DNA from: Candidatus Staskawiczbacteria bacterium
Lineage (GTDB): Bacteria; Patescibacteriota; Minisyncoccia; Minisyncoccales; Staskawiczbacteraceae
DNA length: 64,000 nucleotides
Assembly (NCBI GenBank): GCA_963756225.1
Contig: CAVWMZ010000003.1
Coordinates: 275,988-339,987 of the forward strand
Reading direction: 5' to 3'
Shown here: positions 3,344 to 49,004 of the stretch, piece by piece
Position numbering within the stretch: position 1 is the stretch's first letter
Layout: each line of letters begins with the position of its first letter
The notes under the pieces: generated by a model
The model's input: only the letters and a program-made list of their open reading frames with translations
The model's database searches: none
Told to the model about the DNA's origin: nothing
Position numbers and translations under genes: made by a program

Positions 3344-3354
3344 CACTTCGCCTC

Positions 3355-13002: not shown

Positions 13003-14142
13003 TTAATAACTTATTTTTGTTCCTACGGGGAATCTTGCTAAAGGATTTACAGCTCCTATAACTTCGAAGTGAACATGGCATCCGGTTGCATCTCCAGTTC
13101 TGCCCATCAATCCTATAGTGTCTCCAACAGTAACTTTGTCTCCAGGTTTTACATAAACATACTCAAAGTGACCATAATAGGTGACGGTGCCATTTCCATG
13201 CAAAATTGTAACATAGTTTCCTTTGCCCAAATTCCAAGCATTATTAAATACGGCTCTTTGAACCACGCCGGAAGCTGCAGCATGAACTGGCGTGCCGCAT
13301 TTATTGGCAAGGTCAATGGCATTATAATAATGAAGCCCCTGGGTGATATCTCCTTCTGCCGGGTAAATAAAATAATTATTAGCTAAAGGAATTTGGTTAT
13401 TACTTATTGGCGCTGGTGCAGCATTTTTTGGCATTACTCCTCCAGGCACTATTAAAATATCGCCAATATAAATATCGTCTTGGTTTGCTAAATCATTAAA
13501 AGAAATTACGTCTTCTGCTTGCGCCTTATATTTTGCAGCAATGGCCGACATGGTGTCTCCAGATTTTACAAGATGCAAAACGCCATCTACCGGCAAGATC
13601 GTTAAACTCTGGCCGGCTTTTACCGCAGAAGAACTTGTTAGCTGGTTTGCCCAGGCTATGGTGTTAACGGATATATTATAAGAATCTGCAATTGATTTCA
13701 ATGTATCTCCAGGCTGAACAATATAGTTAGTTATATCTTTTTGGGTCTGGTTGGTTCCGCCAAACACGTCTCCCAAGGTTTTAGCAGATATAGCGCATGG
13801 CGTTGATACTGCACAAAGCGTATTGTCCTGCATTGTTTTTAATTCTGGAGTTTCTAATTGAATCGCATTTGCTTGGCTAAAAAATAAACTGTCTCCACTA
13901 GGAGCACCAGACTTATCAAAAAAAGAATTAAAAAATACGATATGACTTGAAGCTAGGCCACCCATATTAGCCGGGCTGTCGCAAGACGCATACATTCCCC
14001 AAAACAAGATGACAGAAACTAACCCGAAAAAAAATAGGGGTTTTTTAAATAACCTCTTAAAATTAGCCCCCTTTGTTGCATTTTTAGCAGAGAGCCAAGC
14101 CATTTTTATCCCTATTAAAATTCTGTTAAATATTTTTAACAA
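13003..14142 (-). CDS. LysM-domain M23 family metallopeptidase
   Basis: Two LysM repeats (YIVQPGDTLKSIADSYNISVNTIAWAN; HLVKSGDTMSAIAAKYKAQAEDVISFN). The M23 motifs are HYYNAIDLA…GNYVTILHGNGTVTYYGHF…GRTGDATGCHVHFEV. Confidence 0.85.
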   Translation of the reverse strand: MLKIFNRILIGIKMAWLSAKNATKGANFKRLFKKPLFFFGLVSVILFWGMYASCDSPANMGGLASSHIVFFNSFFDKSGAPSGDSLFFSQANAIQLETPELKTMQDNTLCAVSTPCAISAKTLGDVFGGTNQTQKDITNYIVQPGDTLKSIADSYNISVNTIAWANQLTSSSAVKAGQSLTILPVDGVLHLVKSGDTMSAIAAKYKAQAEDVISFNDLANQDDIYIGDILIVPGGVMPKNAAPAPISNNQIPLANNYFIYPAEGDITQGLHYYNAIDLANKCGTPVHAAASGVVQRAVFNNAWNLGKGNYVTILHGNGTVTYYGHFEYVYVKPGDKVTVGDTIGLMGRTGDATGCHVHFEVIGAVNPLARFPVGTKISY

Positions 14143-19951: not shown

Positions 19952-21184
19952 CTAGGTGGACTCACCTTTATGTCTTTCCAACCAACTGGGTGAAGGTTGG
20001 CCTCCCGAAGCCTCTCCCTCCTGACCACCAACAGGTTTAGCGCCTGAGCCTTGCCCCCGACCGCCACGACCACCTTGTTTACCTCTGCCGCGCCCTAACG
20101 CGCCACCTATAACCTCGGCTCCGCCGAGAATGGCCGCATAATTAGGATCTATGGGCTTTCCACCGCTGCTGATGTCCAGTTCTTGTTTGGAGTAATTACC
20201 CCCAGCCAAGCCCTGAGCCCGCAGCAGTTCAAGCGACTGTTCTTTGCGATCGTAGGCGCCACTCTTTTTAAGAGCTTTAACGGCCACTTTTTCAGTTACC
20301 CCCAAACGCGCAGCCTCATCTTTAACCCATTGATCCATCATGATCTTGACTGGACCACCGAGCCGAGCAGCTTCAGCTTGAGCCAGCAAATCTGCTTCGC
20401 TTTTTGCTTTTAAGGCGGCCGTATATGCCGAGTCTTCGCTGATCTTTAGGATTACGATGGAGTTTGTCTGGATTTCCATTCCCCATCGCTCCGTGATGCC
20501 GTCGAATATAGGCGCTGCTGATGGCGTATCGTTTTCTTGGACAAGCTCGTTCCACAGCCTTACGCCGTCGCCCCTGGCTTCCTGGGCGTGTTGCCGAAAA
20601 CCGCATTTTATCCATGCCCGCAAAACCGCATCCAGCCTGTCTATTGTTTGTCTTGCTACATCGCGAGGCGAGATATACAAGTAGTGAATCGGATTAACGA
20701 CCCGTCTTGTCACCTTCGCCACAACATCCAGATTAACGTTCTCAGGATCCTTGGTTTGCGCCCCGGTACAAATTAAATCCGACGTTACATCGTTGAGCTG
20801 AACCAGTACCCCTCCACCGAATCCATCGGTCGGGTCATTGTGACTTTCATACTTAGCCGGACTAACCAATGGCCAAAGGTAAAAAATCCAGCCACCAATC
20901 CTCCAGATACACCAGCATCCACCGATATTAATCGGCCGATTTTCCTTAGGATTGATGGTGTCGTCACAGCAAATAAATCCGGACATGTCGGGCCTGAAGT
21001 GATAACCCGTGAATTCCAGGGCAGTGTAAACCCGTTTTCCCAAGTATTTAAACGATGCTGCCGTTGCCTCCTGCACAATCACAATCCGCAAGATGCCGAA
21101 AGCCCAAGCGATAATTGCGAGAACCGGTATGGCCACTACAATCCCAATCAACCAATACAACGTAAACATTTCAAAGTCGTTCAT
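19952..21184 (-). CDS. SPFH/band-7-like membrane protein with a Gly/Arg-rich tail (high-GC islet)
   Basis: 410 aa. N-terminal TM helix, then IVQEATAASFKYLG…, later …AEADLLAQAEAARLGG…, and a GRGRGKQGGRGGRGQGSG tail. The resemblance to prohibitin-type SPFH domains is by pattern only. Confidence 0.4.
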   Translation of the reverse strand: MNDFEMFTLYWLIGIVVAIPVLAIIAWAFGILRIVIVQEATAASFKYLGKRVYTALEFTGYHFRPDMSGFICCDDTINPKENRPINIGGCWCIWRIGGWIFYLWPLVSPAKYESHNDPTDGFGGGVLVQLNDVTSDLICTGAQTKDPENVNLDVVAKVTRRVVNPIHYLYISPRDVARQTIDRLDAVLRAWIKCGFRQHAQEARGDGVRLWNELVQENDTPSAAPIFDGITERWGMEIQTNSIVILKISEDSAYTAALKAKSEADLLAQAEAARLGGPVKIMMDQWVKDEAARLGVTEKVAVKALKKSGAYDRKEQSLELLRAQGLAGGNYSKQELDISSGGKPIDPNYAAILGGAEVIGGALGRGRGKQGGRGGRGQGSGAKPVGGQEGEASGGQPSPSWLERHKGEST

Positions 21185-21378
21185 GGCGATTCCTTTCTTT
21201 TTGAATTATTTAATCAATTAACGGCCGGCACGGGAAACTTCCCACACCTATTAAGCTGTCTTTTTCAATGTTCTATAGTGCTTTAATTATATCATATTAA
21301 AATCATATTGTCAATATGTTGAGAACTTTTATTGCCTTTGATTTTTTATACATGATATAATGAACGAATCTTAAATTT

Positions 21379-21787
21379 ATGGAACAATATCCTATACCAC
21401 AATTTATTGAATCTGAGAGCAAGATTGCCTTCTTTATATCCTTTAGACAATTCTTTTATCTTGTGGGAGCTGGTGTTATTTGCTTTTTCATATATTGGAT
21501 TATGCCTCGTTTTCTTTTTTATATAGTAGCTTTTATAATTTTCCTCATAGCAGTAATTCTTGCTTTCGGAACTATCGGTGGCACCCCTATATTAAACTGG
21601 CTTATGGGAGGCAATAGGCTTCTCCTTAGACGGCAAAGATTATACATGGAAAAAGAAAGAATCTCCCTATCCGTTTAAGCCAATAAAAAGAACCCAAATA
21701 AAAAAAATAGACCAAGGACCCGTCTTACAAGCACAAACAAGCCAATTAAAGAAAACAAGGACGCTCGTAGAATTAAAAACAAAATAA
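21379..21787 (+). CDS. PrgI/VirB3-like small membrane protein, apparent +1 frameshift around 21596-21660
   Basis: MEQYPIPQFIESESKIAFFISFRQFFYLVGAGVICFFIYWIMP… is the typical PrgI-family start. The alternative frame continues …AIGFSLDGKDYTWKKKESPYPFKPIKRTQIKKIDQGP… to a stop at 21785-21787, 9 nt before the next gene. Confidence 0.5.
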
Positions 21788-21796
21788 TCTAAAATT

Positions 21797-22457
21797 ATGG
21801 CAGAATCAGCTACACAAGCATTTTTAGAAGTACAAGATATAAGAGAGGGGGTTTTACTTTTAAAAAATAATTCTATAAGAGGAATTTTAATGACCTCTTC
21901 TATAAATTTTGCATTGAAATCGGAAGAAGAACAAACGGCTATAATTTATGCTTTTCAAAATTTTCTAAATTCTTTAGATTTTTTCTGCCAAATTGTTGTT
22001 CAGTCCAGGAATATAAACATAACCCCATATTTAGACAGTTTAAAAGATTTAGAAGACAAGCAAACTAATGAACTCTTAAAAAGACAGACTACGTCATACA
22101 GAGAGTTTATAAAAGAAATGGTTGTAGGAGATGTAGTTATGACAAAAAGTTTTTACATAGTTGTACCATATAACCTAATGGAAATTTTTGGACTGAAGGG
22201 TGCCCAAAAGAAAATAAACTTTGGAGAGGCCCCTGGAGTAAAAAACAACAAACCAATAACTGATGATGAATTCCAAAGATGTAAATCGCAATTATGGCAA
22301 AGAATGGAGTATGTATCAATGGGCCTAAGAAGATGCGGGCTGGAAGCAGTGCCGCTTAACAACGCCCGAACTTATAGAACTTTTTTGGTCCATACACCAT
22401 CCAGATCAAGCAGAAATTGGATATTATCCAGAAATACTTCCCGAGTTATTAAAATAA
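21797..22457 (+). CDS. T4SS-associated protein of unknown function, apparent frameshift at CCC 22364-22367
   Basis: N-terminus QAFLEVQDIREGVLLLKNNSIRGILMTSSINFALKSEEEQTAIIYAFQNFLNSL… resembles the start of Gram-positive conjugation ATPase partners. After the shift the frame reads …LNNAELIELFWSIHHPDQAEIGYYPEILPELLK and stops at 22455-22457. Confidence 0.4.
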
Positions 22458-22469
22458 TTTTAAAACGTT

Positions 22470-24275
22470 ATGGCATTTCTAGACAATCTTCTTGGTAAAA
22501 AAGAAGAAGATCTAACACAAAAAATTTTTCAAGAAGAGGCGTTTGACGTGAGAGATATTATAGCCCCTCCATATATTGGCGTACTGCAAGATCATATAAA
22601 ATTAGGAGAAAGGCTTGCCAAGTCCTTCTTTGTTTTTTCTTATCCTAGATATTTAAATACGGGGTGGTTTTCACCCGTCATTGATTTAAATACTCCAATG
22701 GATATTTCATTTTTTATACATCCTGTCAGCAGCGAATTGATTTTAAAAAAATTAAGAAAAAAAGTTACAGAAGTTTCTTCCGAACTTTTAGAGAGAGAAG
22801 AAAAGGGATTAATTAGAGATCCTGCGCTAGAAACTGCATATAAAGATATTGAGAGCCTTAGAGATAATTTGATGACTGCTCAAGAAAAAATGTTTAGACT
22901 TGGTCTTTATATTACAATTTATGAAACTTCTGAAAAAGAATTAAAAGATACCGAACTTACATTAAGATCAATTTTTGAGTCTAGATTAATTTATATTAAA
23001 GCCGCTTTATTTAAACAAAAAGAAGGATTTATTTCTTGCAATCCTTATGGAATGGACTTAATAGAAGTCCACACTCCAATGGACACAGAGCCTTTGTCAA
23101 CATGTTTTCCATTTATTTGTTTTGATTTAAGCTCTAACGAAGGAATTTTATATGGGATAAATAGACACAATAATTCTTTAGTTTTATTTGACAGATTTAG
23201 TTTGGAAAATGCAAATATGGTGGTTTTCGCAAAATCTGGCGCAGGAAAATCATATGCCATAAAACTGGAAATTTTAAGATATTTGATGCAGGGAGTTGAT
23301 TGTATAATTGTTGACCCAGAAAACGAATATGAATTTTTAGCCGATGCAGTTGGCGGAGCATTCTTGAAAATTTCTTTAACTTCAGCAAACCATGTAAATC
23401 CTTTTGATTTGCCGCTGCCCGGCCCAGACGACAACCCAGAAGATATTTTAAGATCTAATGTTATAAACTTAGTTGGGCTTTTAAGAATTATGTTGGGAGG
23501 GTTAACTCCTGAAGAAGATAGCATTTTAGACGAAGCCCTAACAGAAACTTATGCAATAAGAGATATAACTGCGCAAACAGATCCCAAAACATGGGCGACC
23601 AACACTCCCTTAATGTCTGACTTTGAAGAAGTTTTAGAAAGTATGACGGGAACAGAGTCTCTGGGTAAACGTATTAAAAAATTTACCAAAGGAACTTTTT
23701 CTGATTTCTTCAACCAACAATCTAATATTTCAATGGATAAAAATCTAGTTGTTTTTGGGATAAGAGACATGGAAGAATCGCTAAGACCAATCGCACTATA
23801 TATCATCATGAGATATATATGGAATATTGTTAGAGAGAAATTAAAAAAGAGAATTTTGGTTATTGATGAAGCCTGGTGGCTAATGCAATCTCCAGACGGA
23901 GCTTCCTTTCTTTACGGTATAGTTAAAAGGGGTAGAAAATATTGGCTGGGAGTTACAACTATTACCCAGGATGTAGCCGACTTTATGAAATCAGATTATG
24001 GCAAAGCAATTGTCACAAACTCTTCATTGCAACTTTTAATGAAACAGTCTACTGCCGACATCGATTCTGTGCAAAAAGTATTTCAACTAACCGAGCAAGA
24101 AAAATATTTATTACTGGGAGCGGCAGTTGGAGAGGGGTTATTTTTTGCCGGAAGAAAACACGTGTACCTATCGGTTGTTGGCAGCCAAACAGAGAACCAA
24201 ATAATTACAACAAATCCTCAAGAAGTTCTGCAAAACAAAGCGGAAAAACAAAAACTAGAATCTGCCCAAAATTAA
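22470..24275 (+). CDS. virB4: VirB4/TraC-family type IV secretion ATPase
   Basis: 601 aa. The N-terminal VirB4 domain reads …YPRYLNTGWFSPVIDL…DISFFIHP…. Walker A is AKSGAGKSY, followed by …IIVDPENEY… and a Walker B-like ILVIDEAWW. Confidence 0.8.
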   Translation: MAFLDNLLGKKEEDLTQKIFQEEAFDVRDIIAPPYIGVLQDHIKLGERLAKSFFVFSYPRYLNTGWFSPVIDLNTPMDISFFIHPVSSELILKKLRKKVTEVSSELLEREEKGLIRDPALETAYKDIESLRDNLMTAQEKMFRLGLYITIYETSEKELKDTELTLRSIFESRLIYIKAALFKQKEGFISCNPYGMDLIEVHTPMDTEPLSTCFPFICFDLSSNEGILYGINRHNNSLVLFDRFSLENANMVVFAKSGAGKSYAIKLEILRYLMQGVDCIIVDPENEYEFLADAVGGAFLKISLTSANHVNPFDLPLPGPDDNPEDILRSNVINLVGLLRIMLGGLTPEEDSILDEALTETYAIRDITAQTDPKTWATNTPLMSDFEEVLESMTGTESLGKRIKKFTKGTFSDFFNQQSNISMDKNLVVFGIRDMEESLRPIALYIIMRYIWNIVREKLKKRILVIDEAWWLMQSPDGASFLYGIVKRGRKYWLGVTTITQDVADFMKSDYGKAIVTNSSLQLLMKQSTADIDSVQKVFQLTEQEKYLLLGAAVGEGLFFAGRKHVYLSVVGSQTENQIITTNPQEVLQNKAEKQKLESAQN

Positions 24276-24308: not shown

Positions 24309-27300
24309 ATGGCCTTTTGGAAAAAACTTATTTTCTTTTTTCCTGCTTGCTGCGTCGCTTTTCTAAGCGCTAGTTTTGTTTTAGCCCTTGAAGTAAATCT
24401 TCCAGGCTTAGGAGGAAACCCCGACATTGGCACATATATTTGTTATCTTTTTAGCAAGGGAGTAAGTATAGCCGTTTCTATAGCTGTTGTAGCGGTAGCC
24501 GTTGGCGGAGTTTATTATCTGGTCTCCTATGGAAGTGGAAAAATTACGAACGAAGGGAAAGAATGGATAAAGGCAGGAATAACCGGGCTCTTAATAATTG
24601 TCTGCTCAACTTTGATTATGCAGACAATCAGTCCGAAGTTAGGTAGCTGCAAAATTGGCGTCCTACCACAACTTAATTTAAATCCTCTGCCCAGCAATAC
24701 CCCATTGCCCTCATATGTAACCGTCAACACATATAAAGAAATCCCTATTGGCACATTAACTGAAACACTTTTAGCAAGAACAATAAATTGTTATGGTTTT
24801 GACCAAAGTGGGAACCCTATTAACGGCGACTTTTTAGAAACAGCTAAAAGTTGCTCGGTAGACACAGATTGTGGCATAGGCAGCGGCGAAACGTGCAATC
24901 ATAAAACCAATAAATGCGATGATCCCTCGCCCACCTATATGAACCACGACAGGGCAGACTGCCTAACACAATTAGTTACGGGTGCCCAAGAAAAAGCTAA
25001 TGTCATTTCTGCTCTATCGGACCAAATAGCCAGCCTGATGAATACGTGCGATTGCGCTACATATGGAGATTGCAAGCCTCATTGTAACCCTATTACGGGT
25101 TGCGTTCTTAATGGTACAAGTCCTGATGGCTCAGGAAAAACCTCTGGGCTAGGAACTGATTGCACCGGGTCATGCACTGGAGGCGGTGATTCAACGGGCT
25201 CGTGTGTTAATGGCTCATGTCTAGAGGCTCCAAATCAAACCCCGCCAGATTGTTGCCCCACAACCGCCAGTGACACAATAACAAACACCCCCATCTCCGG
25301 GCTAACAACAAAACAACAAATTGAGCATGGGCCAGTTAATGTTGCTGCTAATGTTGGCGCAAGCGGAGGCGGGACAGCGGAAGCTCCGTCGGCATGCAAA
25401 TGCCCAGCATCATACGGTGGAGGATACAGTCCCGGATGCTGCTCGTTAACTGGAGTTTCAGGCTCAACCACAACCCCAACAGCATGCCCGTGTACTAGCG
25501 GCCCCTATGCGGGCGGCTATGATTCTAGCTGCTGCACAACCACAGATGATAGCTGTAAAACTACTGCCACTGAATATCACGGGCTAGATGAATTTAGGTG
25601 TAACCCAAACCCGATTAATGGTGATTTTCAACCTTGCGACGCTGCTTCAATAAAAAATTTTGTTGAAGAAAATGTACAAATAAATGGCGAGACAGTTGTC
25701 GCAATTAACCCAGACAATTGGAAAAAAATAAATTTATTACAGCAGTTAACCTATCTAAAACAAAAAATAGACGATGTTAAAGAAACAATGAGGGAGGATG
25801 AAACCAATCTAGATAAAGCAAGATATATGTTGGCATCTCCGCAATGCTATTTAGCGATACCCTATGTCGATCTCGTTGACACTTATGAGAATACAGACCA
25901 AACACATACAGTTGTTTTACCTGTAAAAGTTTTTAATGACCCTACCGTTACTACTACGCCCCCGCAGCCCGTAGATTCGTCAAAATATTGCAATGGATTT
26001 AATTATAATAATTCGAGTTGTTTAAAACAATGCGATGATGCATGCCCAGACTCAAGTCCTCTGGCCATGCAATCATACAATGCGTGCGGAGCTTGCGACA
26101 CCACTATTTTAAGTGGAGCAGCGCTACAGACCTGTGAAGACACACAAGAAAAATGCATAGAGAAGGCTTACACCTCAAGACCATGCATATATGCTCAAGA
26201 TACCAGCCAAACTTTTAAAGATTGTATTGGCTCTTGTCAGGATAACTGTGAATATGGTTGCAACCAAAAATATGCCGCGTGCTCTGATGCAAATAGTTTT
26301 TGCCAATCTCAGTGTGGCGATACAACTCAAGGTAATTCAAGTTGTGTTTTGGGTCACGCCGACGAGTGCCTGTTTGGAGCCAGTAATTTTGTAGACTGCA
26401 CAAATGCAAATAAGGCCACCGACCAAGGCAATACCAATTATTGCATCCAAAATGCATATATGTGCAAGAATGGATCTAACGAATATTCTGGATATCCTGA
26501 CTGTGTTATCCAAAATTCAAATTGTTCGAACTACACAGATCCGATAAGCTGCCAAAATGCCCCACAATCAGAGTGTATGTGGGATAATGCAGGATTTTGC
26601 ACCCAAACCGATTATTCATCTTATCTGTATAATTACCCGAATTCACAAAAATGCGCATATCCGGATATTCCTGCTACAAGCGGCCCGTGCACAAGTAGTT
26701 CCAGCCCCGATGCCACTTGCCAGGCCGTATGCCCAGAAACAACAAAATGCACCTCAGATTCGAGTTGTCCTTTGTGCCCATGCGATATTTTAAATGCTTC
26801 TCTTAATTTCCCTGTACCAAATACGTCTGTGCCTTATAAAAGTAGCCCCGGCTTTAATGCCGGAGATGAGGGCGTTAATAATAACCAACAAAAAGTTTCG
26901 TCGGATTTAATGACCGGACCGCAATGTGACCAATATAATTATAATGATGACCCATTAACTTTTTATTGTGAAGATAATTGGTGGAATGCGCCAGACAAAG
27001 AGGAGAATGGGAGCACGCCTGGAGGGCCTGGGGGCCCCGGAAATGCCACTGGCCCAGCAGGAACGGGTACTGGATCGTTGATACCAATAGGACAAGAAAA
27101 AATTTGCCCCGCAGAAAACGAAATACCAATCGGACAAACAATTGACGATGCGAAAAAATGGGCTAATAATATAATAACTTCAATAGGCAGCATAGATCAA
27201 GATATACAGGTGATAATTAACCAAATAACTACAATGGGGAAAGCAAAGGACACAAGCCCCGTACAAAATTACTGTAAATGTGATGCGAAATATGAGAATA

Positions 27301-27827
27301 CCAACCCAATTTGCCAAACTAATTGCAATTATAAACAATGGTACGTTTCAGATGGGAATGGAGGATATGAACCTGCTTGTAATTGCACCTTTGTCCCATG
27401 CCAAGGACAACCATGTCAACAGATGATTAACTATCATTCACAGCTTTGGAATGATTATCAAAGTTTTGAAAATGACTATATAAGTTTTTATACTGATGTG
27501 CTATATGACCAGAGGAGTGATATATTTAAAAAATTAACTTATTCGCGACAAACAACAAACAGCTGCAGCTCAACAAATACTATTTATGGAGGAGAGCAAG
27601 ACAGGCTACTAAGCTGCACTAGGGCCGAAGACGAATTACTCACTCCTATTACCGGAGGTAAAATAAGTTTCGATAATAAAACTTGGCCCAATTATTGCTA
27701 TGGGCAACAATTGGGCAACGTTGCTAATGCACCCCTAACAGATAATTGGTTTTGTTGCCAAGAGTACACCAAAACCCCAACGATAAATAATAATCCTATT
27801 TATAATATACAAAAAAATAATTTTTAA
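24309..27827 (+). CDS. Giant (1172 aa) cysteine-dense secreted protein with an N-terminal pilin-like two-helix module
   Basis: Signal peptide, then TM1 (VSIAVSIAVVAVAVGGVYYLV), the loop SYGSGKITNEGKEW, and TM2 ending IMQTISPKL. About 1050 aa follow, full of CxC/CxxC spacings, with an internal repeat CKCPASYGGGYSPGCC / CPCTSGPYAGGYDSSCC and a GGPGGPGNATGPAGTGTG linker. Confidence 0.6.
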   Translation: MAFWKKLIFFFPACCVAFLSASFVLALEVNLPGLGGNPDIGTYICYLFSKGVSIAVSIAVVAVAVGGVYYLVSYGSGKITNEGKEWIKAGITGLLIIVCSTLIMQTISPKLGSCKIGVLPQLNLNPLPSNTPLPSYVTVNTYKEIPIGTLTETLLARTINCYGFDQSGNPINGDFLETAKSCSVDTDCGIGSGETCNHKTNKCDDPSPTYMNHDRADCLTQLVTGAQEKANVISALSDQIASLMNTCDCATYGDCKPHCNPITGCVLNGTSPDGSGKTSGLGTDCTGSCTGGGDSTGSCVNGSCLEAPNQTPPDCCPTTASDTITNTPISGLTTKQQIEHGPVNVAANVGASGGGTAEAPSACKCPASYGGGYSPGCCSLTGVSGSTTTPTACPCTSGPYAGGYDSSCCTTTDDSCKTTATEYHGLDEFRCNPNPINGDFQPCDAASIKNFVEENVQINGETVVAINPDNWKKINLLQQLTYLKQKIDDVKETMREDETNLDKARYMLASPQCYLAIPYVDLVDTYENTDQTHTVVLPVKVFNDPTVTTTPPQPVDSSKYCNGFNYNNSSCLKQCDDACPDSSPLAMQSYNACGACDTTILSGAALQTCEDTQEKCIEKAYTSRPCIYAQDTSQTFKDCIGSCQDNCEYGCNQKYAACSDANSFCQSQCGDTTQGNSSCVLGHADECLFGASNFVDCTNANKATDQGNTNYCIQNAYMCKNGSNEYSGYPDCVIQNSNCSNYTDPISCQNAPQSECMWDNAGFCTQTDYSSYLYNYPNSQKCAYPDIPATSGPCTSSSSPDATCQAVCPETTKCTSDSSCPLCPCDILNASLNFPVPNTSVPYKSSPGFNAGDEGVNNNQQKVSSDLMTGPQCDQYNYNDDPLTFYCEDNWWNAPDKEENGSTPGGPGGPGNATGPAGTGTGSLIPIGQEKICPAENEIPIGQTIDDAKKWANNIITSIGSIDQDIQVIINQITTMGKAKDTSPVQNYCKCDAKYENTNPICQTNCNYKQWYVSDGNGGYEPACNCTFVPCQGQPCQQMINYHSQLWNDYQSFENDYISFYTDVLYDQRSDIFKKLTYSRQTTNSCSSTNTIYGGEQDRLLSCTRAEDELLTPITGGKISFDNKTWPNYCYGQQLGNVANAPLTDNWFCCQEYTKTPTINNNPIYNIQKNNF

Positions 27828-27839: not shown

Positions 27840-28919
27840 ATGACAAAAAAATTATACAAAAAAAAATATTTCCTAGTTTTGTTATTTTTTATTGCTTTTC
27901 TTTTAGGAAGGGCTGGCATTGCTTCCGCGAGCGAAACATTGATATGTCCTTCGGGTTCGGGATCGAGTATTGGAGCTTGTGTTGTGGCTATTTTTAAAGA
28001 AGGCATAGCTATTGCCGGGGGCTTAGCCGCTGCCTCTTTTGCAGTGGGAGCAATTATGTATGCGATGTCGGGAGTTAGCCCCGAAATGGCAAACAGCGGG
28101 AAAGATAGGATGAGAGGTGCTGTTTTAGGGATAGTGCTTTTAGCTTGCTCTTGGACCATTATGGATACAATTAATCCTAAACTAGTGGGGACTTCTTTAT
28201 CTCCTATAAGCCCCCAAACTCCGCCCGATACAACCCTCGGATCAGGTGTTTATCTTTTTTCAGATTCAGCTTGTCAAAGTCCTCCAGAAGTCATCGCAGA
28301 TAGCCTAGCCACCATTGACTCAAACATTAAAGCATATTCAATTGTTAATGACGATTCAGACCCAACAGATAAAATTGACTATGGAGTTATTTTTCATCAA
28401 AACAATGGACTCCAAAGCGGTGGTCTCTGTAGCGACAATAGCGGCCAGCCGATAACCCAAGCAACCTGTAAGCCTGTTCCTTTTAATGGCGCCTTAAGTG
28501 TTTTCCAGTTAAACCCAGATCCAAAAACCTCCGGGTCTGGCGTAGAGTTTTATAGCGAACCTTATGGGTCAGACAGGGGAACCTCGGCTGGATATTACAT
28601 AGTAAAGGGTAGCGACATAACACTTCCATCTCTCGAAAAAGATCCAACTGCGATGCAATTTCTTTGGACAAATATTAAACAAACAGATGCATACGAATCA
28701 ACTTATAAATATTTCGCCGATCGTCCGGGGTCTATGGATTTAAATGGAGATTATTTGGTCGCCCTTTTCTCTCAAGGGACCTCTGGACTTTATGGAGCCG
28801 TGGGGAAATATTGTGAAACGTTTATTGATGATGCTAAAGACTTAAACGCAGAACCAATAATTGCATCTGGCACAGGGACCGGAAAATTAACTAATATTGA
28901 AATAATCCCAATTAAATAA
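27840..28919 (+). CDS. Pilin-like N-terminal module fused to a 240-aa variable domain (paralog A)
   Basis: Signal peptide, then …ICPSGSGSSIGAC…, TM1, the loop SGVSPEMANSGKDR, and TM2 ending IMDTINPKL. The C-terminal domain shares SGVYLF…, GDYLVALF… and …IEIIPIK with the next gene. Confidence 0.55.
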   Translation: MTKKLYKKKYFLVLLFFIAFLLGRAGIASASETLICPSGSGSSIGACVVAIFKEGIAIAGGLAAASFAVGAIMYAMSGVSPEMANSGKDRMRGAVLGIVLLACSWTIMDTINPKLVGTSLSPISPQTPPDTTLGSGVYLFSDSACQSPPEVIADSLATIDSNIKAYSIVNDDSDPTDKIDYGVIFHQNNGLQSGGLCSDNSGQPITQATCKPVPFNGALSVFQLNPDPKTSGSGVEFYSEPYGSDRGTSAGYYIVKGSDITLPSLEKDPTAMQFLWTNIKQTDAYESTYKYFADRPGSMDLNGDYLVALFSQGTSGLYGAVGKYCETFIDDAKDLNAEPIIASGTGTGKLTNIEIIPIK

Positions 28920-28958: not shown

Positions 28959-30233
28959 ATGGCAACAAAAAACCGAAAAAAATTTTGTTTTTGCACTTTA
29001 CTTTTTACTCTTTTATTTGTTAATTTTTTTTATATACAAATAAATAAAGTTGCTGCCCTAGAAGTACAGTACCCAACTATAACCGTACTTGGCCAGAGCA
29101 GTCCAAATGTCACGGATTTACCTAGCTATATAACATATTTATACTATGCGGGGTTGGTTGTCGGTCTTGGCTCTGTATTTATTTCTTTAGCTATGGCTGG
29201 AGTAATGTTTTTTTTATCCCCTATTAGTCCCGAGGCAAAAGCCGCTGCAAAAGACAGAACCTTTGGAGCCATATCGGGTTTACTTATTTTAGTGTTAACA
29301 TATTTAATTTTATATACTATAAATCCCCAATTAAATGCGTTTAGTTTTAATAAAATTCAGCCATCTTCGTTGTCGGTAAAAACAACTACCGCTTCGGGTG
29401 TTTATTTATATACGTCTGGATGCACGGCTCAAGATATCCAGCCCAACACAACAAGTATTGCAGATTTAGGTAAATTAAAAAAGAAAATTGGTTCTGTGGG
29501 TATTGTCCAAGATACGGCTAATGGTATTTCTTATGTGTCTATCTTATATTCTAACCCTAATTTTTGGGGCAAATGCTTATATATAAACCCTGGTAGTAGC
29601 TGCGAGTCCGCAAACGATCCCGCCACTAATATGCCGCTCGCCTCATCTGTTTCTATTTATCAATACAATCCTAGCCCAAGTGGTGATGGGGTTTATTTTT
29701 TCCGTAAATCCTGTTTTAATAATGGATATTATAATGATATGAATAGCTTGCTCCAACATTGCAAAAAAGACAGTGGGGGATACTATGAGGTTAGCAATGG
29801 CAGCATTGCCGGTGGCGTTAGTGGGAACATGTATTATTCTAAATTGGGCGATTTAACTTTCACAAATGTTCCAGACGACGAAAAAGACTGCACAGAATAT
29901 GATAAAAATGGAGACTGTTGTACTAAGGCTGATACCGCCTTAGGGTGCGATCAAGATGGTAGAGTAGCGCCGACACTTGGAGGAGAAAATATTTCTTCTA
30001 TAATAGTAAATGGAGACTATGTTGTATTGCTTATTTATGTCGCCAAAAATGATAGTGGCTCGGGGCCATGGACGGCCTGCCAAGAATTCCCTACTAGCTA
30101 TGACACAAATAAAGTGGGACCAAGACAAATAAAGTGGGAAAATATAAGAAACACAAACGGCATAGATGACGGTGGCACAAATTTAGGAAGCGTCATCCCT
30201 AATTATGTTGCCATCATACCAATACAAAGATAA
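28959..30233 (+). CDS. Pilin-like N-terminal module fused to a 300-aa variable domain (paralog B)
   Basis: Signal peptide, TM1, the loop SPISPEAKAAAKDR, and TM2 ending LYTINPQL. The C-terminal domain shares SGVYLY…, GDYVVLLIY… and …VAIIPIQR with the previous gene. Confidence 0.55.
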   Translation: MATKNRKKFCFCTLLFTLLFVNFFYIQINKVAALEVQYPTITVLGQSSPNVTDLPSYITYLYYAGLVVGLGSVFISLAMAGVMFFLSPISPEAKAAAKDRTFGAISGLLILVLTYLILYTINPQLNAFSFNKIQPSSLSVKTTTASGVYLYTSGCTAQDIQPNTTSIADLGKLKKKIGSVGIVQDTANGISYVSILYSNPNFWGKCLYINPGSSCESANDPATNMPLASSVSIYQYNPSPSGDGVYFFRKSCFNNGYYNDMNSLLQHCKKDSGGYYEVSNGSIAGGVSGNMYYSKLGDLTFTNVPDDEKDCTEYDKNGDCCTKADTALGCDQDGRVAPTLGGENISSIIVNGDYVVLLIYVAKNDSGSGPWTACQEFPTSYDTNKVGPRQIKWENIRNTNGIDDGGTNLGSVIPNYVAIIPIQR

Positions 30234-30840: not shown

Positions 30841-30875
30841 AAAACCGCCCAATTATAGGCGGTTTTATTTTTTTA
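30841..30875. terminator. Terminator downstream of jag
   Basis: AAAACCGCC-caattat-AGGCGGTTTT with flanking T/A runs. Confidence 0.6.
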
Positions 30876-34741: not shown

Positions 34742-35874
34742 ATGAAAGTAGAAATATTAAAAGAAAATTTAAAAAATGGGATAAGCATTGTTGAAAAAAT
34801 TGTAGGGAAAAACCCATCTTTGCCGATTTTAGATAACGTTTTAATAAGTACAGAGGATAATTTTTTAAGTTTAAGTTCAACAGATTTAGAAACTGCTATA
34901 AAATTATGGATATTAACCAAAATTGTGAAAAAGGGAAAAGCAGTTGTGCCTGCAAAATTTTTCTCTAATCTAGTGTCTTTATTGCCCAATGAAAAGATTG
35001 TATTAGAAGAAAAAAATCAAGCCCTACACATTGAGTGTAAGAACCTAAAAAACCAAATTCAAGGCTTTAATCCGGACGAGTTTCCCCTAATCCCAGAGTT
35101 TGAAAATCTAGAATTTATAGAAGTAGATAATAAGAAGTTTTGCCAAGGGTTGTCTCAAATTGTGGAAATATCTTCTCCTTCACAGTCTAGGCCGGAAATT
35201 TCGGGTATTTATTTTATTTTCTTCGAAAAACTTAATAAAAATAGTTGCTACGGACAGTTTTCGCTTAGCGGAGAAGAAATATTATTCTAGAAGAGCCAAT
35301 AAAAAAAGAAACTTCTTTTATCTTGCCCCAAAAACCAGCTAGAGAAATAATTAATATTTTAGGAGAAAAAGAAGGTAAATTAAAAATATATTTTTCACCA
35401 AGTCAAATAATGTTTGAGTTCCCAATGAAAGACGCCCCTCGCCCACAAGTTCAGATTATTTCTAGACTGATTGAGGGGGAATATCCTAATTACGAAGAAA
35501 TTATCCCTAAAAAATTTAAAACACATATTATTATAAAGAGAGATGAATTTTTAAATCAAATTAAAACAGCATCACTTTTCTCTGGTAAAATAAGCGAGAT
35601 AAAAATTAAAATAGATCCAGAGAAAAAAGAGGTTGGAATTTCTGCTCAAGACCCAGATGTTGGCGAAAGCAATTCTAATATTGCGGCCAAAATTGAAGGA
35701 GAGCCCATAGAAACATCTTTTAATTATAAATTTTTAGCAGATGGGCTATTAAATATTAAAAGTTCAGAGGTTATATTTGATTTAAGCAAAGAGGACGGGC
35801 CATGTGTATTAAGGCCAGTGGGAGATGCCAGCTATATTTATGTGGTTATGCCAATTAAATCGACACAAAGGTAA
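34742..35874 (+). CDS. dnaN: DNA polymerase III beta sliding clamp, two apparent frameshifts (about 35205-35225 and the A7 run 35301-35307)
   Basis: The three track ORFs concatenate to …RPEISGIYFIF/SSKNLIKIVATDSFRLAEKKYYSRRANKK/ETSFILPQKPAREIINIL…. The VATDSFRLA motif and overall length fit DnaN. Confidence 0.8.
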
Positions 35875-35922: not shown

Positions 35923-38074
35923 TTAAGAGGCGCTTGAATCGGGTGCGGCCGTACTATTTGTTGACAACCAATCATTAATCCCCGCTTGCCATAAGAAGTA
36001 TTGTGGGTCAGATGATGGGTTTTGAGGAGGAGGCCCTAAGGGATTATTTTTATCAACATAATATAAGATTGTATTTGTGTCTCCCGGCGGTAGTAGGCCC
36101 AATAATACGGGACTTCTGTTAGTAATTGGATCTGGCGGGGTAAAGTTTTCGGTGGGGCTCGCGGATACTATTTTTGTCATAACTTTATTCCACATTGGGG
36201 CGGCAATTCCTACTCCCTCGTCTTTTGTCGGGTGGTTATTATTATTCCCAGTCCACACCCCGATAACAACAAAAGGGGTGTATCCCATTGTCCAACCATC
36301 AACAAAATTTTGTGTGGTTCCGGTTTTTAGCTGCTACCTGATAGCCGGGCACATATAATGGGGAGCTATATCCGAAAATTGGACCTCTCGCGTTATTGTC
36401 AGACAAAACATTATTAATTTGTCTTGCAATTTGTGTATCTAAAACTTTTGTCGGCTGTTCTTTGTTTTGTTCAATAATATTCCCATTAGCATCTGTTATT
36501 TTTAGAATACTTACCGGGGGAATATAATTACCCTCTGTTGCGAAAACCCCATACGCAGACGTCATCTCTAATAAATTTACATCACCTCCCCCCAATACTA
36601 AAGACAATCCATAATCTTTAGTGTCTGTAAGTGTTGTAATCCCTAAATCTTTGGCTGTTTTTAAAGTATCTGGAATGCCAGCTAAATATAGCGTTTTTAC
36701 GGACGGGATGTTTAAAGAACAATCTAGCGCTGTGCGCATAGTCACTGGTCCCCTATTTTTACCATCATAGTCTTGTGGGTTGTAACAGGCGCTGCCGTCT
36801 GTGCCGACCACGCCATTCCCGCTTGGGTCACAGCTCGGGTTAAATTCAGTTTTTACGTCCCATAATACTGTGCTTGGGGTATATCCCTTTTTCAAAGGCT
36901 GTTGCATAGGCGAAGGGCTTGAAAGAAGATCCTGGTTGTCTTTGTCCCATTGTGGCTACATCGTATTTGGGTTCAAATAAACAACTATTTGAGGTGCTAT
37001 CATCACAACCAGCAGGATACGAAGGGGCGAAGTAATCTTTTGACCCCACTAGAGCTAAAATTCGGCCAGTTTTAGGGTCTAAAACAACCATGGCTGCATT
37101 ATATGCCCCCTTACTTATATTTGTTTTTTCTGCGTCTTTAATAACCTGTTCTGCATACTGTTGGACATCCCAATTTAAAGAAGTGTAAACCCTTAACCCT
37201 TTTTCCTTTAAATAATCTTCTCCATATTTATCATCTAAATATTTTTTAACGTACATTACAAAATCTGGAGCCTTTATTGGTTCTGTGTTTTCGGCAAAAG
37301 TTATTTTTTCGGCCTTAGATTCAATTAATTGGGCGTTAGTTATATATCCCAACTTCTGCATTTTATCTAAAATAAGATCCTTTTTTTGTAGCAATTCTGC
37401 TTGTTGGGCCCATAAGGAGAATAATAACTTGGGGCTGGTATTAGGGCAGTTAGGGTGGCGGCCTGGGCTATTGTCAGGTCAGATGCTGGTTCGCTAAAAT
37501 ATGTTTGGCTGGCAGCTTCAGCTCCGTAGGCATTTTCTCCGAAAGGAATTTCATTTAAATACCAGTCAAAAATTTGGTCCTTAGAATATCTTTCTTCTAA
37601 TTCTATGCTTAAAACAATTTCTTTAATTTTTCTAGATAAACTTTTTTGATTTGTTAAATATACGGCCCGTACAAGCTGTTGGGTTAAAGTAGATCCTCCC
37701 TGGCTTTTAGATCCAGAAGTGAAGTCAACCCATGCAGCCCTTATAATTCCTTCAAAATCAACCCCTCCATGTTGGTAAAACCTGGAATCCTCTGAAGATA
37801 AAACAGAATGTTTTAAATTATCTGAAATTTTATCAAATGAGACAATTTCCCTTTTTTCTTCGCCATAAATATCATATAAAAGAACCTTGCCCGTGCTGTC
37901 GTAAATTTTAGTAGATTGGATAAACGGGGTCTCGGTAAATTTTTCCGGTTGGGGCAAATCCCAGGTGTAATAAACAAAAACTAATAAAAGTAAAACGCAC
38001 CCTCCTAAAAACAAAAAAGCCAAATATTTACCGGCCGTGATTAAAACGTCAAATTTTTTATTTTTCTTAAACAT
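35923..38074 (-). CDS. Class A penicillin-binding protein (transglycosylase/transpeptidase), three apparent frameshifts
   Basis: Four consecutive minus-strand ORFs. GT51 motifs are EDSRFYQHGGVDFEGIIRA and GGSTLTQQL. The transpeptidase SxxK is PGSSFKPF, with …KTGTTQNF… recovered across the junction at an A-run near 36310. Other junctions lie near 37385 and 36890. Confidence 0.8.
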
Positions 38075-38228
38075 ATTATATTGTGCAATTGGACGCTTTT
38101 ATTAATATCGCAAGCGTTTTTCTATTATAACCTTAAGAACTATTTTATAAAAGAAGTTAATGATATAAATACGGCCTGCTAAATAAAAAACCCGCCTATC
38201 AAAGAACGGCGGATTATTTATTGATTAT

Positions 38229-40443: not shown

Positions 40444-42099
40444 CTACAACCCGACAGTCGCTCCTGGCCACTTTCTCCTCTTAGGGGTATTAGGAACTCT
40501 ATTTTCGAGCTTATCGTCAGTTTTAACCACTTTTTCTACTAAGTCCTGCAGAATCTCTCTCTTTAATTCATAAGTAGCATTTTCAAGCCCATTTTTCAAT
40601 TGTCCATAAAGCTCCTTTATAGACATCAATTGAATTGCCTTTTCATTTTCAGATGTTGCGAACCGCCCCAGCTTTGCATCCTCTTCTTGTAGTTTTTCAA
40701 TTTTATCATCACACTCTTTTATTTTTTTATCATAAAAGTTTTTGCTTACAGATTTTTCGGCATATAATTCAGCGTACCTTTCCTTTTTTTCTTCTTGGGA
40801 CGCAAACTCTTTTTTAATGGTTTCTAACCGATCAGATACATTATTACCGCCACCTTGGTTTTTACAATCTTCAATTTCTTTCAACGCTACCTCCGGTTCA
40901 AGAAAAATTTCTTTTAGCTTGTCCCACACCGGCGGCATAATTCTTGATTCACTTATAGTTGGCACACAGCACCTCCTCGCAGTCATGTATGGCCTATTTC
41001 CCACACAGAAGTAGTATTTTGTTTTTCTTTTTTCACCCTCGTCTGTTTTATATTTTCTGTTGGCGCTTTGGTATTTATAGCCATCGTAGCCGCAGACTAT
41101 TTTATGCTGGAGGGTGTAAATTTCTTTTGTATTTCTTATCGCCTGTTCTTTATTCTTTTTCAGTTGTTTTTGTCCTCTTTCAAATATTTCTTTGGAGATA
41201 ATTTTTAGAGACTTGTCCTCAACTTTAATCCAGTCTTCTTTCGGCCTTAAATTGTTTTCATTTTTTGTCCTGCCGGGATGCAAATATTTTCTGTAGTAAA
41301 ATGTTCCCGTGTAAACTTCGTTGCTCAGAATTCTGTCCACCGTTTTTCTATTCCACCAGCCTTTAGTTTCTGTTATTTTTTTTCTTCCTATTAAATCAAA
41401 CTTTGTGGGAACTTTCATGTCGTTTAATCTTTGCTGTATTTTGTATTCGCTCAATCCTTCGTCCACAAGCCATCCATACATCATTTTTACTGTTTTTATT
41501 TCATTCTTTTCAATTTCCAGTTTTTGTTTTTCTTTATTGATTTTTAGTCCATAGGGAGCGGTACCACCCAAGTATTTTCCTTCCTTCATTGCCTTCACCA
41601 TCCCTTCATTTCTTGATTCCAATCCAACCTCCCTCATCCACTCAGCGAACACGCCCGCGTTAGCGAACATAGCCCTCCCGGTAGGTGTTGAGGTGTCAAA
41701 CGGCTCTGTCACTGACTTAAACTCTATCCCGATGTCCCTGAGTTCGGCCACGGTGTTTAGTAGTAGTCGTAGGTTTCTAAAGAACCGATCCATTCTATAA
41801 ACAATTATTACATCAATCTTTTTATTCCGGGCATCTTTGAGCAATCTTTGCAGGTCCGGCCTTTTTTCTGTTCCGCCCGAGAATCCGATGTCTTTATATA
41901 GTGACCCTTCGTTTATTTCCCATCCTTCATTTTTTGCAAAGCTTTTTATTTTTTCTTCCTGCGTCTCCGGGCTGTATCCTTCCTTGCCCGCCTCATCTGA
42001 CGAGCATCTAACATAAAAAGCCGCATTCTTTGTTTTAATGGTTGTTTCTCGGCCGATGTTATAATTTTGTATTGCTGTTTTCATGTTGTTTTTCTCCAT
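40444..42099 (-). CDS. Large serine recombinase (integrase)
   Basis: 551 aa. The resolvase catalytic domain is AAFYVRCSSDEAGKEGYSPETQ…DVIIVYRMDRFFRN…. It is followed by a recombinase domain, a Cys-containing zinc-ribbon region (…KIVCGYDG…FCVGN…RRCC…) and a long coiled-coil. Confidence 0.9.
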   Translation of the reverse strand: MEKNNMKTAIQNYNIGRETTIKTKNAAFYVRCSSDEAGKEGYSPETQEEKIKSFAKNEGWEINEGSLYKDIGFSGGTEKRPDLQRLLKDARNKKIDVIIVYRMDRFFRNLRLLLNTVAELRDIGIEFKSVTEPFDTSTPTGRAMFANAGVFAEWMREVGLESRNEGMVKAMKEGKYLGGTAPYGLKINKEKQKLEIEKNEIKTVKMMYGWLVDEGLSEYKIQQRLNDMKVPTKFDLIGRKKITETKGWWNRKTVDRILSNEVYTGTFYYRKYLHPGRTKNENNLRPKEDWIKVEDKSLKIISKEIFERGQKQLKKNKEQAIRNTKEIYTLQHKIVCGYDGYKYQSANRKYKTDEGEKRKTKYYFCVGNRPYMTARRCCVPTISESRIMPPVWDKLKEIFLEPEVALKEIEDCKNQGGGNNVSDRLETIKKEFASQEEKKERYAELYAEKSVSKNFYDKKIKECDDKIEKLQEEDAKLGRFATSENEKAIQLMSIKELYGQLKNGLENATYELKREILQDLVEKVVKTDDKLENRVPNTPKRRKWPGATVGL

Positions 42100-42259
42100 A
42101 TTTATCCCAAAGCTCGTTGAAACTTTTCATAATAAATATGCAGTTTTCTTTGGTTAATATTCCCTCGCTCAATTCGACCACTTTTCTTACGTCAAACATA
42201 TTAGTTGCTCCGCTGTCCCGGATTTCCAAATAAGTTTGAAATCGTTTTTTTGTTATCAT
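42059..42259 (-). CDS. Small conserved-looking mobile-element protein
   Basis: 66 aa, …YLEIRDSGATNMFDVRKVVELS…. It overlaps the recombinase start. The function is unknown. Confidence 0.4.
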   Translation of the reverse strand: MITKKRFQTYLEIRDSGATNMFDVRKVVELSEGILTKENCIFIMKSFNELWDKYGEKQHENSNTKL

Positions 42260-42316
42260 GTTTTTTCATTTTAATTATTCCGACCTCATCAAGGTAATGG
42301 ATACTCCTATTAAAAG

Positions 42317-42655
42317 TTAAGTCAAGTTGTTTCCCTCGATCATGCCTTTATATCTTTGTTTCCTATATTCAAGCCCCAAACAGATCCGGCAGCCAATTTG
42401 CTGGTTTATTGGGTGGTAAAACAGCACCCCGGCTCGTTTATTGCATATGGGGCATAGGAACCATATGCGCGCGCCGTTGAAGCAGGTTTTGGAAGTAGTC
42501 AGCTCAATTTTAAGGCCCAAGGTCTCTAACTCTGAAGTTAAGAGCGATTCTTTTAATAACACCCTACTTTTTTTCAAAAAATTATTTATGCGTATTGCTT
42601 GGCACTCGTCCACCAAAATTGTTTTTCCTAAATCATTTGGGTTCAATGTTTTCAT
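42317..42655 (-). CDS. Hypothetical zinc-ribbon protein
   Basis: 112 aa with CPICNKR…GCRIC, which are CxxC pairs. Confidence 0.4.
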   Translation of the reverse strand: MKTLNPNDLGKTILVDECQAIRINNFLKKSRVLLKESLLTSELETLGLKIELTTSKTCFNGARIWFLCPICNKRAGVLFYHPINQQIGCRICLGLEYRKQRYKGMIEGNNLT

Positions 42656-43304: not shown

Positions 43305-43484
43305 AAAATTTTTAAGCTTATTTTTATTAAATTTTATTGTAGAGTTGTTTCCACCCTGTGGAAATAATTAATGTTCTTTCCTTTGGGTAAGATTAGGAAT
43401 GCTTCTTCCCAATCTATTCCCTTTACTGCAAGATTTGCAGTGATTTTGTAATTTGGGTACAAGTGACCGATGCCTTGTTCTTTT

Positions 43485-45914: not shown

Positions 45915-45983
45915 AGATTTTATGCTTGGGATGGTGCAAGGTACTACCTTGCTATGTCTGCCGTGCTTTATGTTTGCTGGCGG

Positions 45984-46498: not shown

Positions 46499-46527
46499 AA
46501 ATATACTTAATTGCGCCGACTTAAATT

Positions 46528-49001: not shown

Positions 49002-49004
49002 ATT

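Follow-up and report, generated by a model that had tools for sequence, protein, structure and literature searches.

A cysteine-rich VirB2-hairpin fusion as a candidate host-facing subunit of a Patescibacteria type IV secretion system

Which part of an ultra-small bacterium's type IV secretion system (T4SS) faces its host? The question is raised by a 64,000-nucleotide stretch of DNA (the window) from the Candidatus Staskawiczbacteria clade (Patescibacteria, ultra-small bacteria), in which the gene directly behind virB4 encodes an unusually large and cysteine-rich protein, referred to here as the giant protein. Patescibacteria account for a large share of bacterial diversity, and their T4SS stands alone among those known in being essential for the growth of the bacterium itself. 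The analysis identifies the giant protein as the first and largest of three consecutive VirB2-hairpin fusions of a Patescibacteria-type T4SS. It is probably a fast-diversifying, disulfide-scaffolded surface or tip subunit that contacts the host, of which we infer the tip location and the adhesin role.

The giant gene and its T4SS locus

The giant protein contains 84 cysteines, corresponding to 7.2% of its residues, compared with 1.13% in the other 47 large open reading frames (ORFs) of the window. The original prediction, made from the letters of the DNA, had described just such a cysteine-dense protein of 1172 residues. Its account of the cysteine spacings holds for CC (five occurrences) and CxC (six); CxxC occurs just twice and is thus not prominent, and CxxxC is found ten times. 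A search of 5.8 billion proteins returned 92 homologues with 25–52% identity and 4.9–8.3% cysteine, whose lengths range from 896 to 1645 residues, barring two truncated entries of approximately 690 residues. The named homologues belong to Candidatus Staskawiczbacteria or Patescibacteria and are annotated as "hypothetical", once as "pilin". The ORF is unbroken and matches its homologues end to end; because of this alignment and the number of homologues, the gene is not an assembly artefact, an explanation that had been put forward for checking. When 1.84 billion representative proteins were searched exhaustively with a profile, 239 matches at E <= 1e-30 and roughly 20,000 weaker ones emerged; the weaker ones, we infer, mostly hit the pilin module. 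Among the members collected, 167 are at least 800 residues long.

The gene order around the giant gene is prgI/virB3, trsD, virB4, the giant gene, and the genes of a 359-aa and a 424-aa pilin fusion, followed downstream by jag, yidC (in a block that also adjoins rnpA), dnaA, and dnaN. Upstream lie a LysM-M23 peptidase gene and ksgA, then genes for a polytopic protein of 674 aa, a protein of 205 aa, and one of 410 aa on the minus strand. The monoderm-type VirB4, TrsD, and PrgI/VirB3 are the combination that marks the Patescibacteria-type T4SS, and no relaxase or VirD4 family was found among the window ORFs scanned. By its gene content, the setting is a chromosomal, dnaA-proximal Patescibacteria-type T4SS. 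Such systems have been described with an MPF-FATA-like VirB4, TrsD, VirB3, and arrays of VirB2-like pilins, near dnaA and usually without a relaxase; no adhesins were detected in that survey (Quinonero-Coronel et al. 2025, PMC12102498). In a saccharibacterium, epibiotic growth requires the genes of the T4SS and its pilins, and neither a relaxase nor a coupling protein is present (Wang et al. 2023, PMC10633639); essentiality of these genes for epibiotic growth in Saccharibacteria is also reported in PMC12857230. The assignment of the giant gene to a secretion operon is therefore upheld in the form of a T4SS operon, with a product that is predicted to be exported. Its supposed place at the end of that operon is not: two further pilin fusions follow before the terminator-like hairpin, and the giant gene is the first of a three-gene array.

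The N-terminus of the giant protein identifies it as a pilin fusion. Cleavage of the signal peptide is expected between ..FVLA and LEV, at a family-wide "ALE..YP" motif in which E28 and P32 are nearly invariant. Hydropathy outlines three segments (residues 1–34, 43–76, and 85–109), and a short basic loop, GSGKITNEGKEW, connects the two hairpin helices. A signal peptide, two hydrophobic helices, and a short charged loop are the features of a conjugative pilin, as is encoding beside virB3 and virB4, which holds in 15 related loci. The same features, together with the virB3/virB4 neighbourhood, are common to the VirB2/TrbC/T4SS_pilin families (PF04956, PF18895). All three consecutive genes have this module in common, with roughly 32% identity, and the hairpin of the giant protein is colinear with both paralogous hairpins and with a short plain pilin encoded elsewhere in the window. 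The plain-pilin alignment stops where the fusion ectodomains start. The pilin-like anchor that had been noted is thus present, with its signal peptide, its helices, and a weak PF18895 match, and belongs to the VirB2/TrbC-like conjugative pilins rather than to type IV pilins. Whereas a classical VirB2 comprises about 70–120 residues and forms a filament together with lipid, the giant protein scores below the Pfam threshold and bears a C-terminal extension of some 1,050 residues beyond the hairpin, so that it lacks the small size typical of a conjugative pilin. On a VirB2-type topology, this extension is predicted to lie outside the cell. It ends in ...NNPIYNIQKNNF and carries no LPXTG motif.

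The hairpin might alternatively serve as a mere anchor of a general surface coat or protective protein comparable to the variant-specific surface proteins of Giardia, its operon position being historical. A cysteine-rich, fast-evolving sequence on a conserved scaffold would suit such a coat, and beyond the hairpin no similarity to any T4SS component is detectable. We regard this explanation as quite improbable. Gaps of 33 nt to virB4 and 12 nt to the next gene, and the lack of a strong terminator-like hairpin ahead of 30841 on the + strand, amount to a geometry of co-transcription; the giant gene's synteny with virB4 is strict across the clade; and its hairpin is a homologue of the hairpins in the remaining array members and in the plain TrbC-like pilin. 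Moreover, each locus holds one copy, and the window contains no silent cassettes for antigenic variation.

Ectodomain fold, cysteine scaffold, and insertion hot spot

The AlphaFold2 (AF2) model of the giant protein, built from an 83-sequence alignment, has a mean predicted local distance difference test (pLDDT) score of 82.5 and a predicted template modelling (pTM) score of 0.81, and residues ~138–1152 are confident. Low confidence is confined to the linker after the hairpin, residues 353–412, and a Gly/Pro-rich hinge. The first module, D1, is mixed alpha/beta, with an EIPIGTLTE motif, a long helix (residues 215–244), and a CxC cluster ending in DCCP..IEHGP. Family hidden Markov model (HMM) positions up to about 285 also match the 750–1060-aa proteins encoded behind virB4 in loci whose VirB4 is 65–70% identical to that of the window. 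The central body comprises a second module (421–545) with a helix at 476–509, an all-alpha cysteine-rich part (555–825), and a beta-sheet (826–890). It is followed by the hinge, a lineage-specific insertion that corresponds to the low-complexity hinge recognised earlier (residues 901–923). The C-terminal core module, D5, contains EIPIGQT, long helices at 941–981 and 1037–1092, and a YCKC..C..C motif; HMM positions 711–965 match proteins in the loci L044, L045, L046, L047, L055, and L062. The pattern of EIPIG, helix, and CxC common to the N- and C-terminal modules hints at a shared origin. An internal duplication was rejected, since hhalign gave 14% probability for the N module (125–270) against the C module (920–1060) and self-BLAST returned nothing.

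The ectodomain has no match in Pfam, NCBIfam, PHROGs, or a PDB-sequence profile search, in which the best candidate, a venom allergen (E = 0.12), was rejected. A Foldseek search with the model returned nothing at E <= 0.001 (best PDB match E = 2.3, best BFVD match E = 0.97), and matches to VSG, MakE, and VgrG-Tle (E > 4) are noise. The search procedure itself works, since the model of the neighbouring 424-aa protein matched βγ-crystallins. As modelled, and within the libraries searched, the ectodomain is a new fold or set of folds, in agreement with the earlier statement that no known domain could be recognised by sequence; the fold search extends that statement.

The cysteines of this ectodomain are strongly conserved. 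In a 93-sequence alignment, conservation reaches at least 97% in 23 cysteine columns and at least 90% in about 45. Three pairs co-occur perfectly (593–616, 74/74/74; 571–643, 84/84/84; 1086–1149, 82/82/82), and five others nearly so (45–114, 596–609, 794–808, 431–443, and 782–804; r = 0.88–0.98). Within eight 90%-identity clusters, one of 175 strain-level substitutions affects a cysteine, compared with 11.3 expected; this set is too small for reliable mapping of hot spots. Since variable cysteines are gained and lost pairwise, disulfide partners are indicated rather than metal clusters, which would be expected to vary in fours and are disfavoured. In this respect the cysteine-rich body behaves as a disulfide scaffold, and both the disulfide-type body proposed at the outset and the conservation of its cysteine positions are supported. 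Cys45 (24441..24443) and Cys114 (24648..24650) co-occur in 55/56/55 of the 93 sequences and are predicted to sit at both outward ends of the hairpin on a VirB2-type topology. By analogy, they may form a disulfide staple across the hairpin ends. Agrobacterium VirB2 and RP4 TrbC are cyclised head to tail; the likeness of the staple to this cyclisation is one of analogy only.

The comparison of orthologues for hypervariable segments revealed an insertion hot spot flanked by the anchors IEHGP and GLDEFRC. Insert length varies between 13 and 415 residues, with a median of 43, and is 82 residues in the giant protein of the window. This last insert contains both units of the near-repeat that had been pointed out, ACKCPASYGGGYSPGCCS (residues 362–379) and PTACPCTSGPYAGGYDSSCCT (residues 390–410). 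At least two motif matches arose in 5 of 20,000 composition-preserving shuffles of the ectodomain, for a motif defined post hoc, and at the DNA level the near-repeat is no tandem repeat. The twin CxC..GGY..CC modules occur, among the homologues scanned, only in the giant protein of the window; the pattern has just two other matches, in P0132 and P0133, both coincidental and unrelated. The near-repeat is therefore present as described, and CxC...YGGGY...CC is no hallmark of the family.

The contents of the insert differ among family members. A metzincin-like module (HELGHxxGLxDxYD...S[VI]MN) is found at or near the hot spot in 11 of the 167 members (P0040, P0012, P0032, P0034, P0064, P0066, P0095, P0099, P0100, P0112, and P0119), with a PF00413 match of E = 1.3e-7 in P0040. 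An M23-like half-domain (GPHLHF; PF01551, E down to 6e-11) occurs in at least four members, including P0037, P0074, P0129, and P0132; in P0071 and P0129, the M23-like piece is located elsewhere in the protein and not at the hot spot. These pieces correspond to the C-terminal half without the N-terminal HxxxD and, judged by their motifs, may be non-catalytic. Two members carry a 250-aa apolipoprotein-like coiled-coil insert. Given that such swaps are tolerated, the hot spot is most simply an exposed display position.

The inserts raise the possibility that the giant protein is itself delivered to the host as an enzyme or toxin, for instance a cell-wall hydrolase equivalent to VirB1, whose homologues are seldom encoded close to virB4 in most classes of Patescibacteria (PMC12102498). 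The metzincin-like and M23-like inserts of some members speak for this, as does the scarcity of VirB1. The enzyme modules are, however, optional and present in fewer than 10% of members, and the insert of the window's giant protein has no enzyme motif (HExxH, HxH, or GPHLHF), just as the whole protein has no HExxH or HxH motif and no match to an enzyme family or fold. In addition, a separate LysM-M23 peptidase is conserved just upstream, and the giant protein is anchored in the membrane by two transmembrane (TM) helices. A delivered enzyme or toxin is therefore the least probable of the alternatives considered.

Divergence among relatives and the proposed role

A VirB4-seeded scan of one genome per GTDB species yielded 80 loci, in which VirB4 is 91–54% identical to that of the window. 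A full-length giant protein is encoded in 15 loci only, all with VirB4 at least about 77% identical. In these loci it always comes first behind virB4, followed by two to three smaller pilin fusions wherever the contig is long enough. The window's gene order also recurs in L001 (a 738-kb contig) and in the distant member L002. In loci with VirB4 65–70% identical, the protein encoded behind virB4 (~690–1060 aa) shares the hairpin, the N-module, and the C-module only. The central ~450 residues are a clade-specific elaboration, since they are absent from those distant relatives. In the remaining loci, the pilin-hairpin genes detected behind virB4 carry other ectodomains, and their complete ORFs span ~300–2095 aa.

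The rates of divergence differ widely within the locus. Between the window and L001, identity is 92% for VirB4, 91% for DnaA, 76% for YidC, and 67% for KsgA, and 35% for the giant protein, 32% for the 674-aa VirB6-like candidate, and 40–41% for the small fusions. The mean across 120 species pairs is 84% for VirB4 and 35% for the giant protein; in the closest pair, the values are 93% and 45%. In these alignments, the exposed parts of the T4SS diversify far faster than its motor, while the cysteine scaffold is retained.

Such conservation of architecture could also reflect a static part of the channel, namely a stalk or collar that spans the wall or surface (S-) layer and replaces components of the VirB8/VirB9/VirB10 or PrgL type that Patescibacteria T4SS loci lack, rather than a factor for recognising the host. 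The giant gene is single-copy and keeps its position behind virB4 in all 15 loci, its architecture and cysteine scaffold are conserved throughout, the high pTM suggests one rigid body, and VirB8 homologues are scarce in Patescibacteria (PMC12102498). The 674-aa channel candidate evolves equally fast, so that speed alone implies no adhesin. Scaffolds that touch conserved partners are normally slow, however, and the giant protein is at 35% where VirB4 is at 92%. The central 450 residues are peculiar to the clade, and the ectodomains at this position in other Paceibacteria differ (300–2095 aa). The protease or peptidase inserts and a hot spot of 13–415 residues suit a display platform better than a conduit. 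A static channel part is thus unlikely, though the most plausible of the rivals.

We favour the reading of the giant protein as a host-contacting surface or tip subunit. The earlier suggestion of an "adhesin or host-contact factor" is consistent with the fast divergence, the protease or peptidase inserts in relatives, and the published essentiality and expression of these T4SSs. In Paceibacteria parasitic on methanogens, T4SS-pilin-domain proteins rank among the most strongly expressed genes whose function is unknown (PMC10936435), and this high expression fits a host-facing role. In the mechanism that we propose, the protein would be exported by Sec, after which the hairpin would park it in the membrane and make it a substrate of the VirB4/VirB6-driven assembly route used by the short pilin. 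An appendage of 1,050 residues could not fit along the length of a VirB2 filament, which would place the protein at the far end of the pilus or stub, or in a ring around the mouth of the channel. The disulfide-stapled body would then present a lineage-specific surface and a swappable insert to the host envelope. The protein would serve to recognise and attach to the host; those relatives that carry enzyme inserts could also break down the host surface locally.

Several observations weigh against this reading. PF18895 (T4SS_pilin) scores 14.3 bits in the giant protein (E = 0.044), far below the gathering cut-off of 26.6, and 19.8–22 bits in its homologues, and the hairpin could be a mere membrane anchor. 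Outside the hot spots, divergence is fairly even and is not concentrated at a "receptor-binding" tip. Fast evolution singles out no adhesin, because extracellular proteins commonly show it, as does the 674-aa VirB6-like candidate. The insert of the window's giant protein lacks enzyme motifs, as described above. The check for oxidative-folding partners came back empty as well: no DsbA, MdbA, VKOR, or thioredoxin gene, and hence no thiol-oxidase gene, lies within the window, and many relatives come from anoxic habitats. Candidate phyla radiation (CPR) genomes are reportedly enriched in MdbA-like and VKOR genes (bioRxiv 10.1101/335083).

Comparison with known systems indicates which parts of this arrangement are new. 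The published VirB2-like pilin arrays of Patescibacteria (PMC10633639, PMC12102498) share with the window the MPF-FATA-like VirB4, TrsD, PrgI/VirB3, the proximity to dnaA, and the tandem, divergent pilin-hairpin genes. They consist of small VirB2-like pilins, whereas here every array member carries an ectodomain of 130–2,000 residues, in all examined Paceibacteria-type loci where an array was detected. Unlike in the published arrays, the first member in the window's clade has 850–1,320 residues, 5–7% cysteine, and no known fold. VirB5 pilus-tip proteins of Gram-negative T4SSs and the minor pilins CofB and TcpB, which have large C-terminal domains, would resemble the giant protein in the proposed principle only: a pilin-like module brings the subunit into filament assembly, and a large domain is displayed at the tip for contact with the target. 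VirB5 is not fused to VirB2, and the type IV pilins, among them CofB and TcpB, are an unrelated family. Neither Pfam and NCBIfam nor the Foldseek search of the PDB at E <= 0.001 linked the giant protein to the VirB5/TraC family or fold. Like PrgB (aggregation substance), an adhesin of Gram-positive T4SSs, the giant protein is large and putatively surface-exposed, has a T4SS of the monoderm type encoded beside it, and is proposed to act in cell-cell contact. It differs from PrgB in having no LPXTG/sortase signal and no PrgB-type domains, in being anchored by a hairpin, and in showing no homology. The searchable literature contains no description of the giant family, of pilin fusions with large ectodomains, or of the cassette site. 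The T4SS is a known system, and the giant family, the fusion architecture, and the cassette site appear to be new.

These findings provide a concrete candidate for the host-facing end of the T4SS in one Paceibacteria clade and show the "VirB2-like pilins" of the class Paceibacteria as fusions to large ectodomains. The giant protein also offers a confidently predicted, apparently new disulfide-rich fold. The cassette contents (protease, peptidase, coiled coil, and Cys-knots) could be matched with host identity, by which the determinants of host specificity in ultra-small episymbionts become more directly testable. A further-reaching proposal, which we put forward tentatively and hold to be possible though doubtful, is that the family forms an unrecognised class of T4SS tips in which a VirB2 hairpin carries a new-fold disulfide "warhead". 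In Paceibacteria episymbionts, host range would be determined by the cassette site, which would also assist in breaching the host envelope, and the Cys45–Cys114 staple would replace the cyclisation of VirB2.

Neighbouring genes and other features of the window

The features of the locus are collected in Table 1.

Table 1. Coordinates of the giant gene, its modules, and associated features in the window
Feature	Position	Strand	Basis or remark
Short plain VirB2/TrbC-like pilin, 121 aa	2812..3177	+	PF04956 E = 7e-4, 20.2 bits vs cut-off 27.9, profile 2-98/98
LysM-LysM-Peptidase_M23 protein	13003..14142	-	Kept at T4SS cluster edge in L001 and L002
Candidate VirB6-like polytopic protein, 674 aa	17211..19235	+	Hydropathy, conserved synteny
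Membrane protein, 410 aa, divergently transcribed	19952..21184	-	Within T4SS cluster; Gly/Arg-rich C-terminus
Promoter-like site upstream of prgI, TTGCCT-18-TATAAT with extended TG	21332..21361	+	Consensus scan only
PrgI / VirB3-like	21379..21784	+	PF12666 35.4 bits vs cut-off 27; frameshift ~21605, listed ORF stops 21678
TrsD-like (related to VirB4 N-terminal domain)	21797..22498	+	NF041427 E = 1.4e-5; C-terminus frameshifted ~22420
VirB4 ATPase, CD1110 / MPF-FATA type	22470..24275	+	NF045971 347.3 bits vs cut-off 325; PF19044, PF12846
Giant cysteine-rich VirB2-hairpin fusion gene	24309..27827	+	ORF and translation; ATG start; 1172 aa
Predicted signal peptide, residues 1-26	24309..24386	+	Hydropathy; alignment consensus ALExxYP
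VirB2/TrbC-like two-helix hairpin, helices 40-75 and 81-107	24426..24629	+	AF2 secondary structure, hydropathy
Module D1, residues 138-345	24720..25343	+	High pLDDT, invariant residues
Hypervariable insertion hot spot, residues 346-420	25344..25568	+	pLDDT <50 at 353-412; column occupancy 0.25-0.32
Clade-specific central body, residues 421-899	25569..27005	+	High pLDDT; most Cys columns >=90% conserved
Gly/Pro-rich hinge, residues 900-925	27006..27083	+	Occupancy 0.26; pLDDT below 50
C-terminal core module D5, residues 926-1172	27084..27824	+	Alignment, AF2, HMM
Second pilin fusion, 359 aa, VirB2-like hairpin and ectodomain	27840..28919	+	PF18895 E = 8.1e-6, 26.3 bits vs cut-off 26.6
Third pilin fusion, 424 aa, VirB2-like hairpin and βγ-crystallin-type ectodomain	28959..30233	+	AF2 pLDDT 85.3, Foldseek
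Bidirectional terminator-like hairpin after third pilin fusion	30841..30866	.	Bounds the T4SS block, opposite the promoter-like site

The second and third pilin fusions are paralogues with 29% identity over 258 residues. In a Foldseek search of the PDB, the model of the 424-aa protein matched γ/β- and microbial βγ-crystallins (9g3w, E = 7.8e-4, probability 1.0; 3hzb, template modelling score TMt 0.69). The fold of the microbial βγ-crystallins Protein S, flavollin, and clostrillin is thus found in this neighbour, and the giant protein itself has no match to it. A VirB2-like hairpin fused to βγ-crystallin domains is not described in the searchable literature. In a protein collection, the 424-aa protein of the window is present (P0199, on a 383-kb contig; also on a Logan contig, ERR10755936). 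The giant protein itself was not returned from the same collection above 52% identity, its gene being apparently uncalled or unstored there.

The short plain pilin lies between tRNA-Arg (2708..2782) and tRNA-Lys (3271..3344), approximately 19 kb from the T4SS cluster. It comprises a signal peptide, a CQGSDC motif, two TM helices, and a short tail, and is a possible major pilin encoded in trans. An IS1595-family (ISXO2-like DDE) transposase is encoded near it (4504..5190, minus strand). The 674-aa protein has a signal peptide, a ~115-aa cysteine-rich N-terminal ectodomain (CPSGDSCYC..C..C), at least six TM segments, and a ~260-aa hydrophilic tail. No family match was obtained for it in Pfam or NCBIfam, and its topology and position suggest an extended VirB6. 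The LysM-M23 protein could be the cell-wall hydrolase of the T4SS, analogous to VirB1. A perfect TTGACA-17-TATAAT site (21314..21286) lies ahead of the gene of the 410-aa membrane protein. This protein has a clear orthologue in L001 (38% identity, no Pfam match), and the gene at this position in L002 encodes a Band_7/SPFH domain without BLASTP similarity to the protein of the window.

A 233-aa ORF before virB4 was considered as a split-off N-terminal piece of VirB4 and rejected; it is the TrsD-like gene, as in other Patescibacteria (PMC12102498). Compared by tblastn with their L001 orthologues, prgI (21379..21784), trsD (21797..22454), dnaN (34742..35874), and a class A penicillin-binding protein gene (35965..38089) each contain one to three frameshifts. 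That essential genes should be broken so often suggests indel errors of the assembly rather than pseudogenes. The frameshifted neighbours thus indicate an indel-prone assembly, yet the 3.5-kb ORF of the giant gene is intact.

Further downstream, the region ~40444..54811 resembles an integrated mobile element or defence island. It encodes a large serine recombinase (40444..42099), a DUF5906 helicase-like protein, Prim-Pol, T5orf172, an Eco57I-like methylase fragment, and a type III restriction-modification pair (res 50065..52455, mod 52448..54175). Strongly negative GC and AT skews at ~38–46 kb and 50–54 kb overlap this island.

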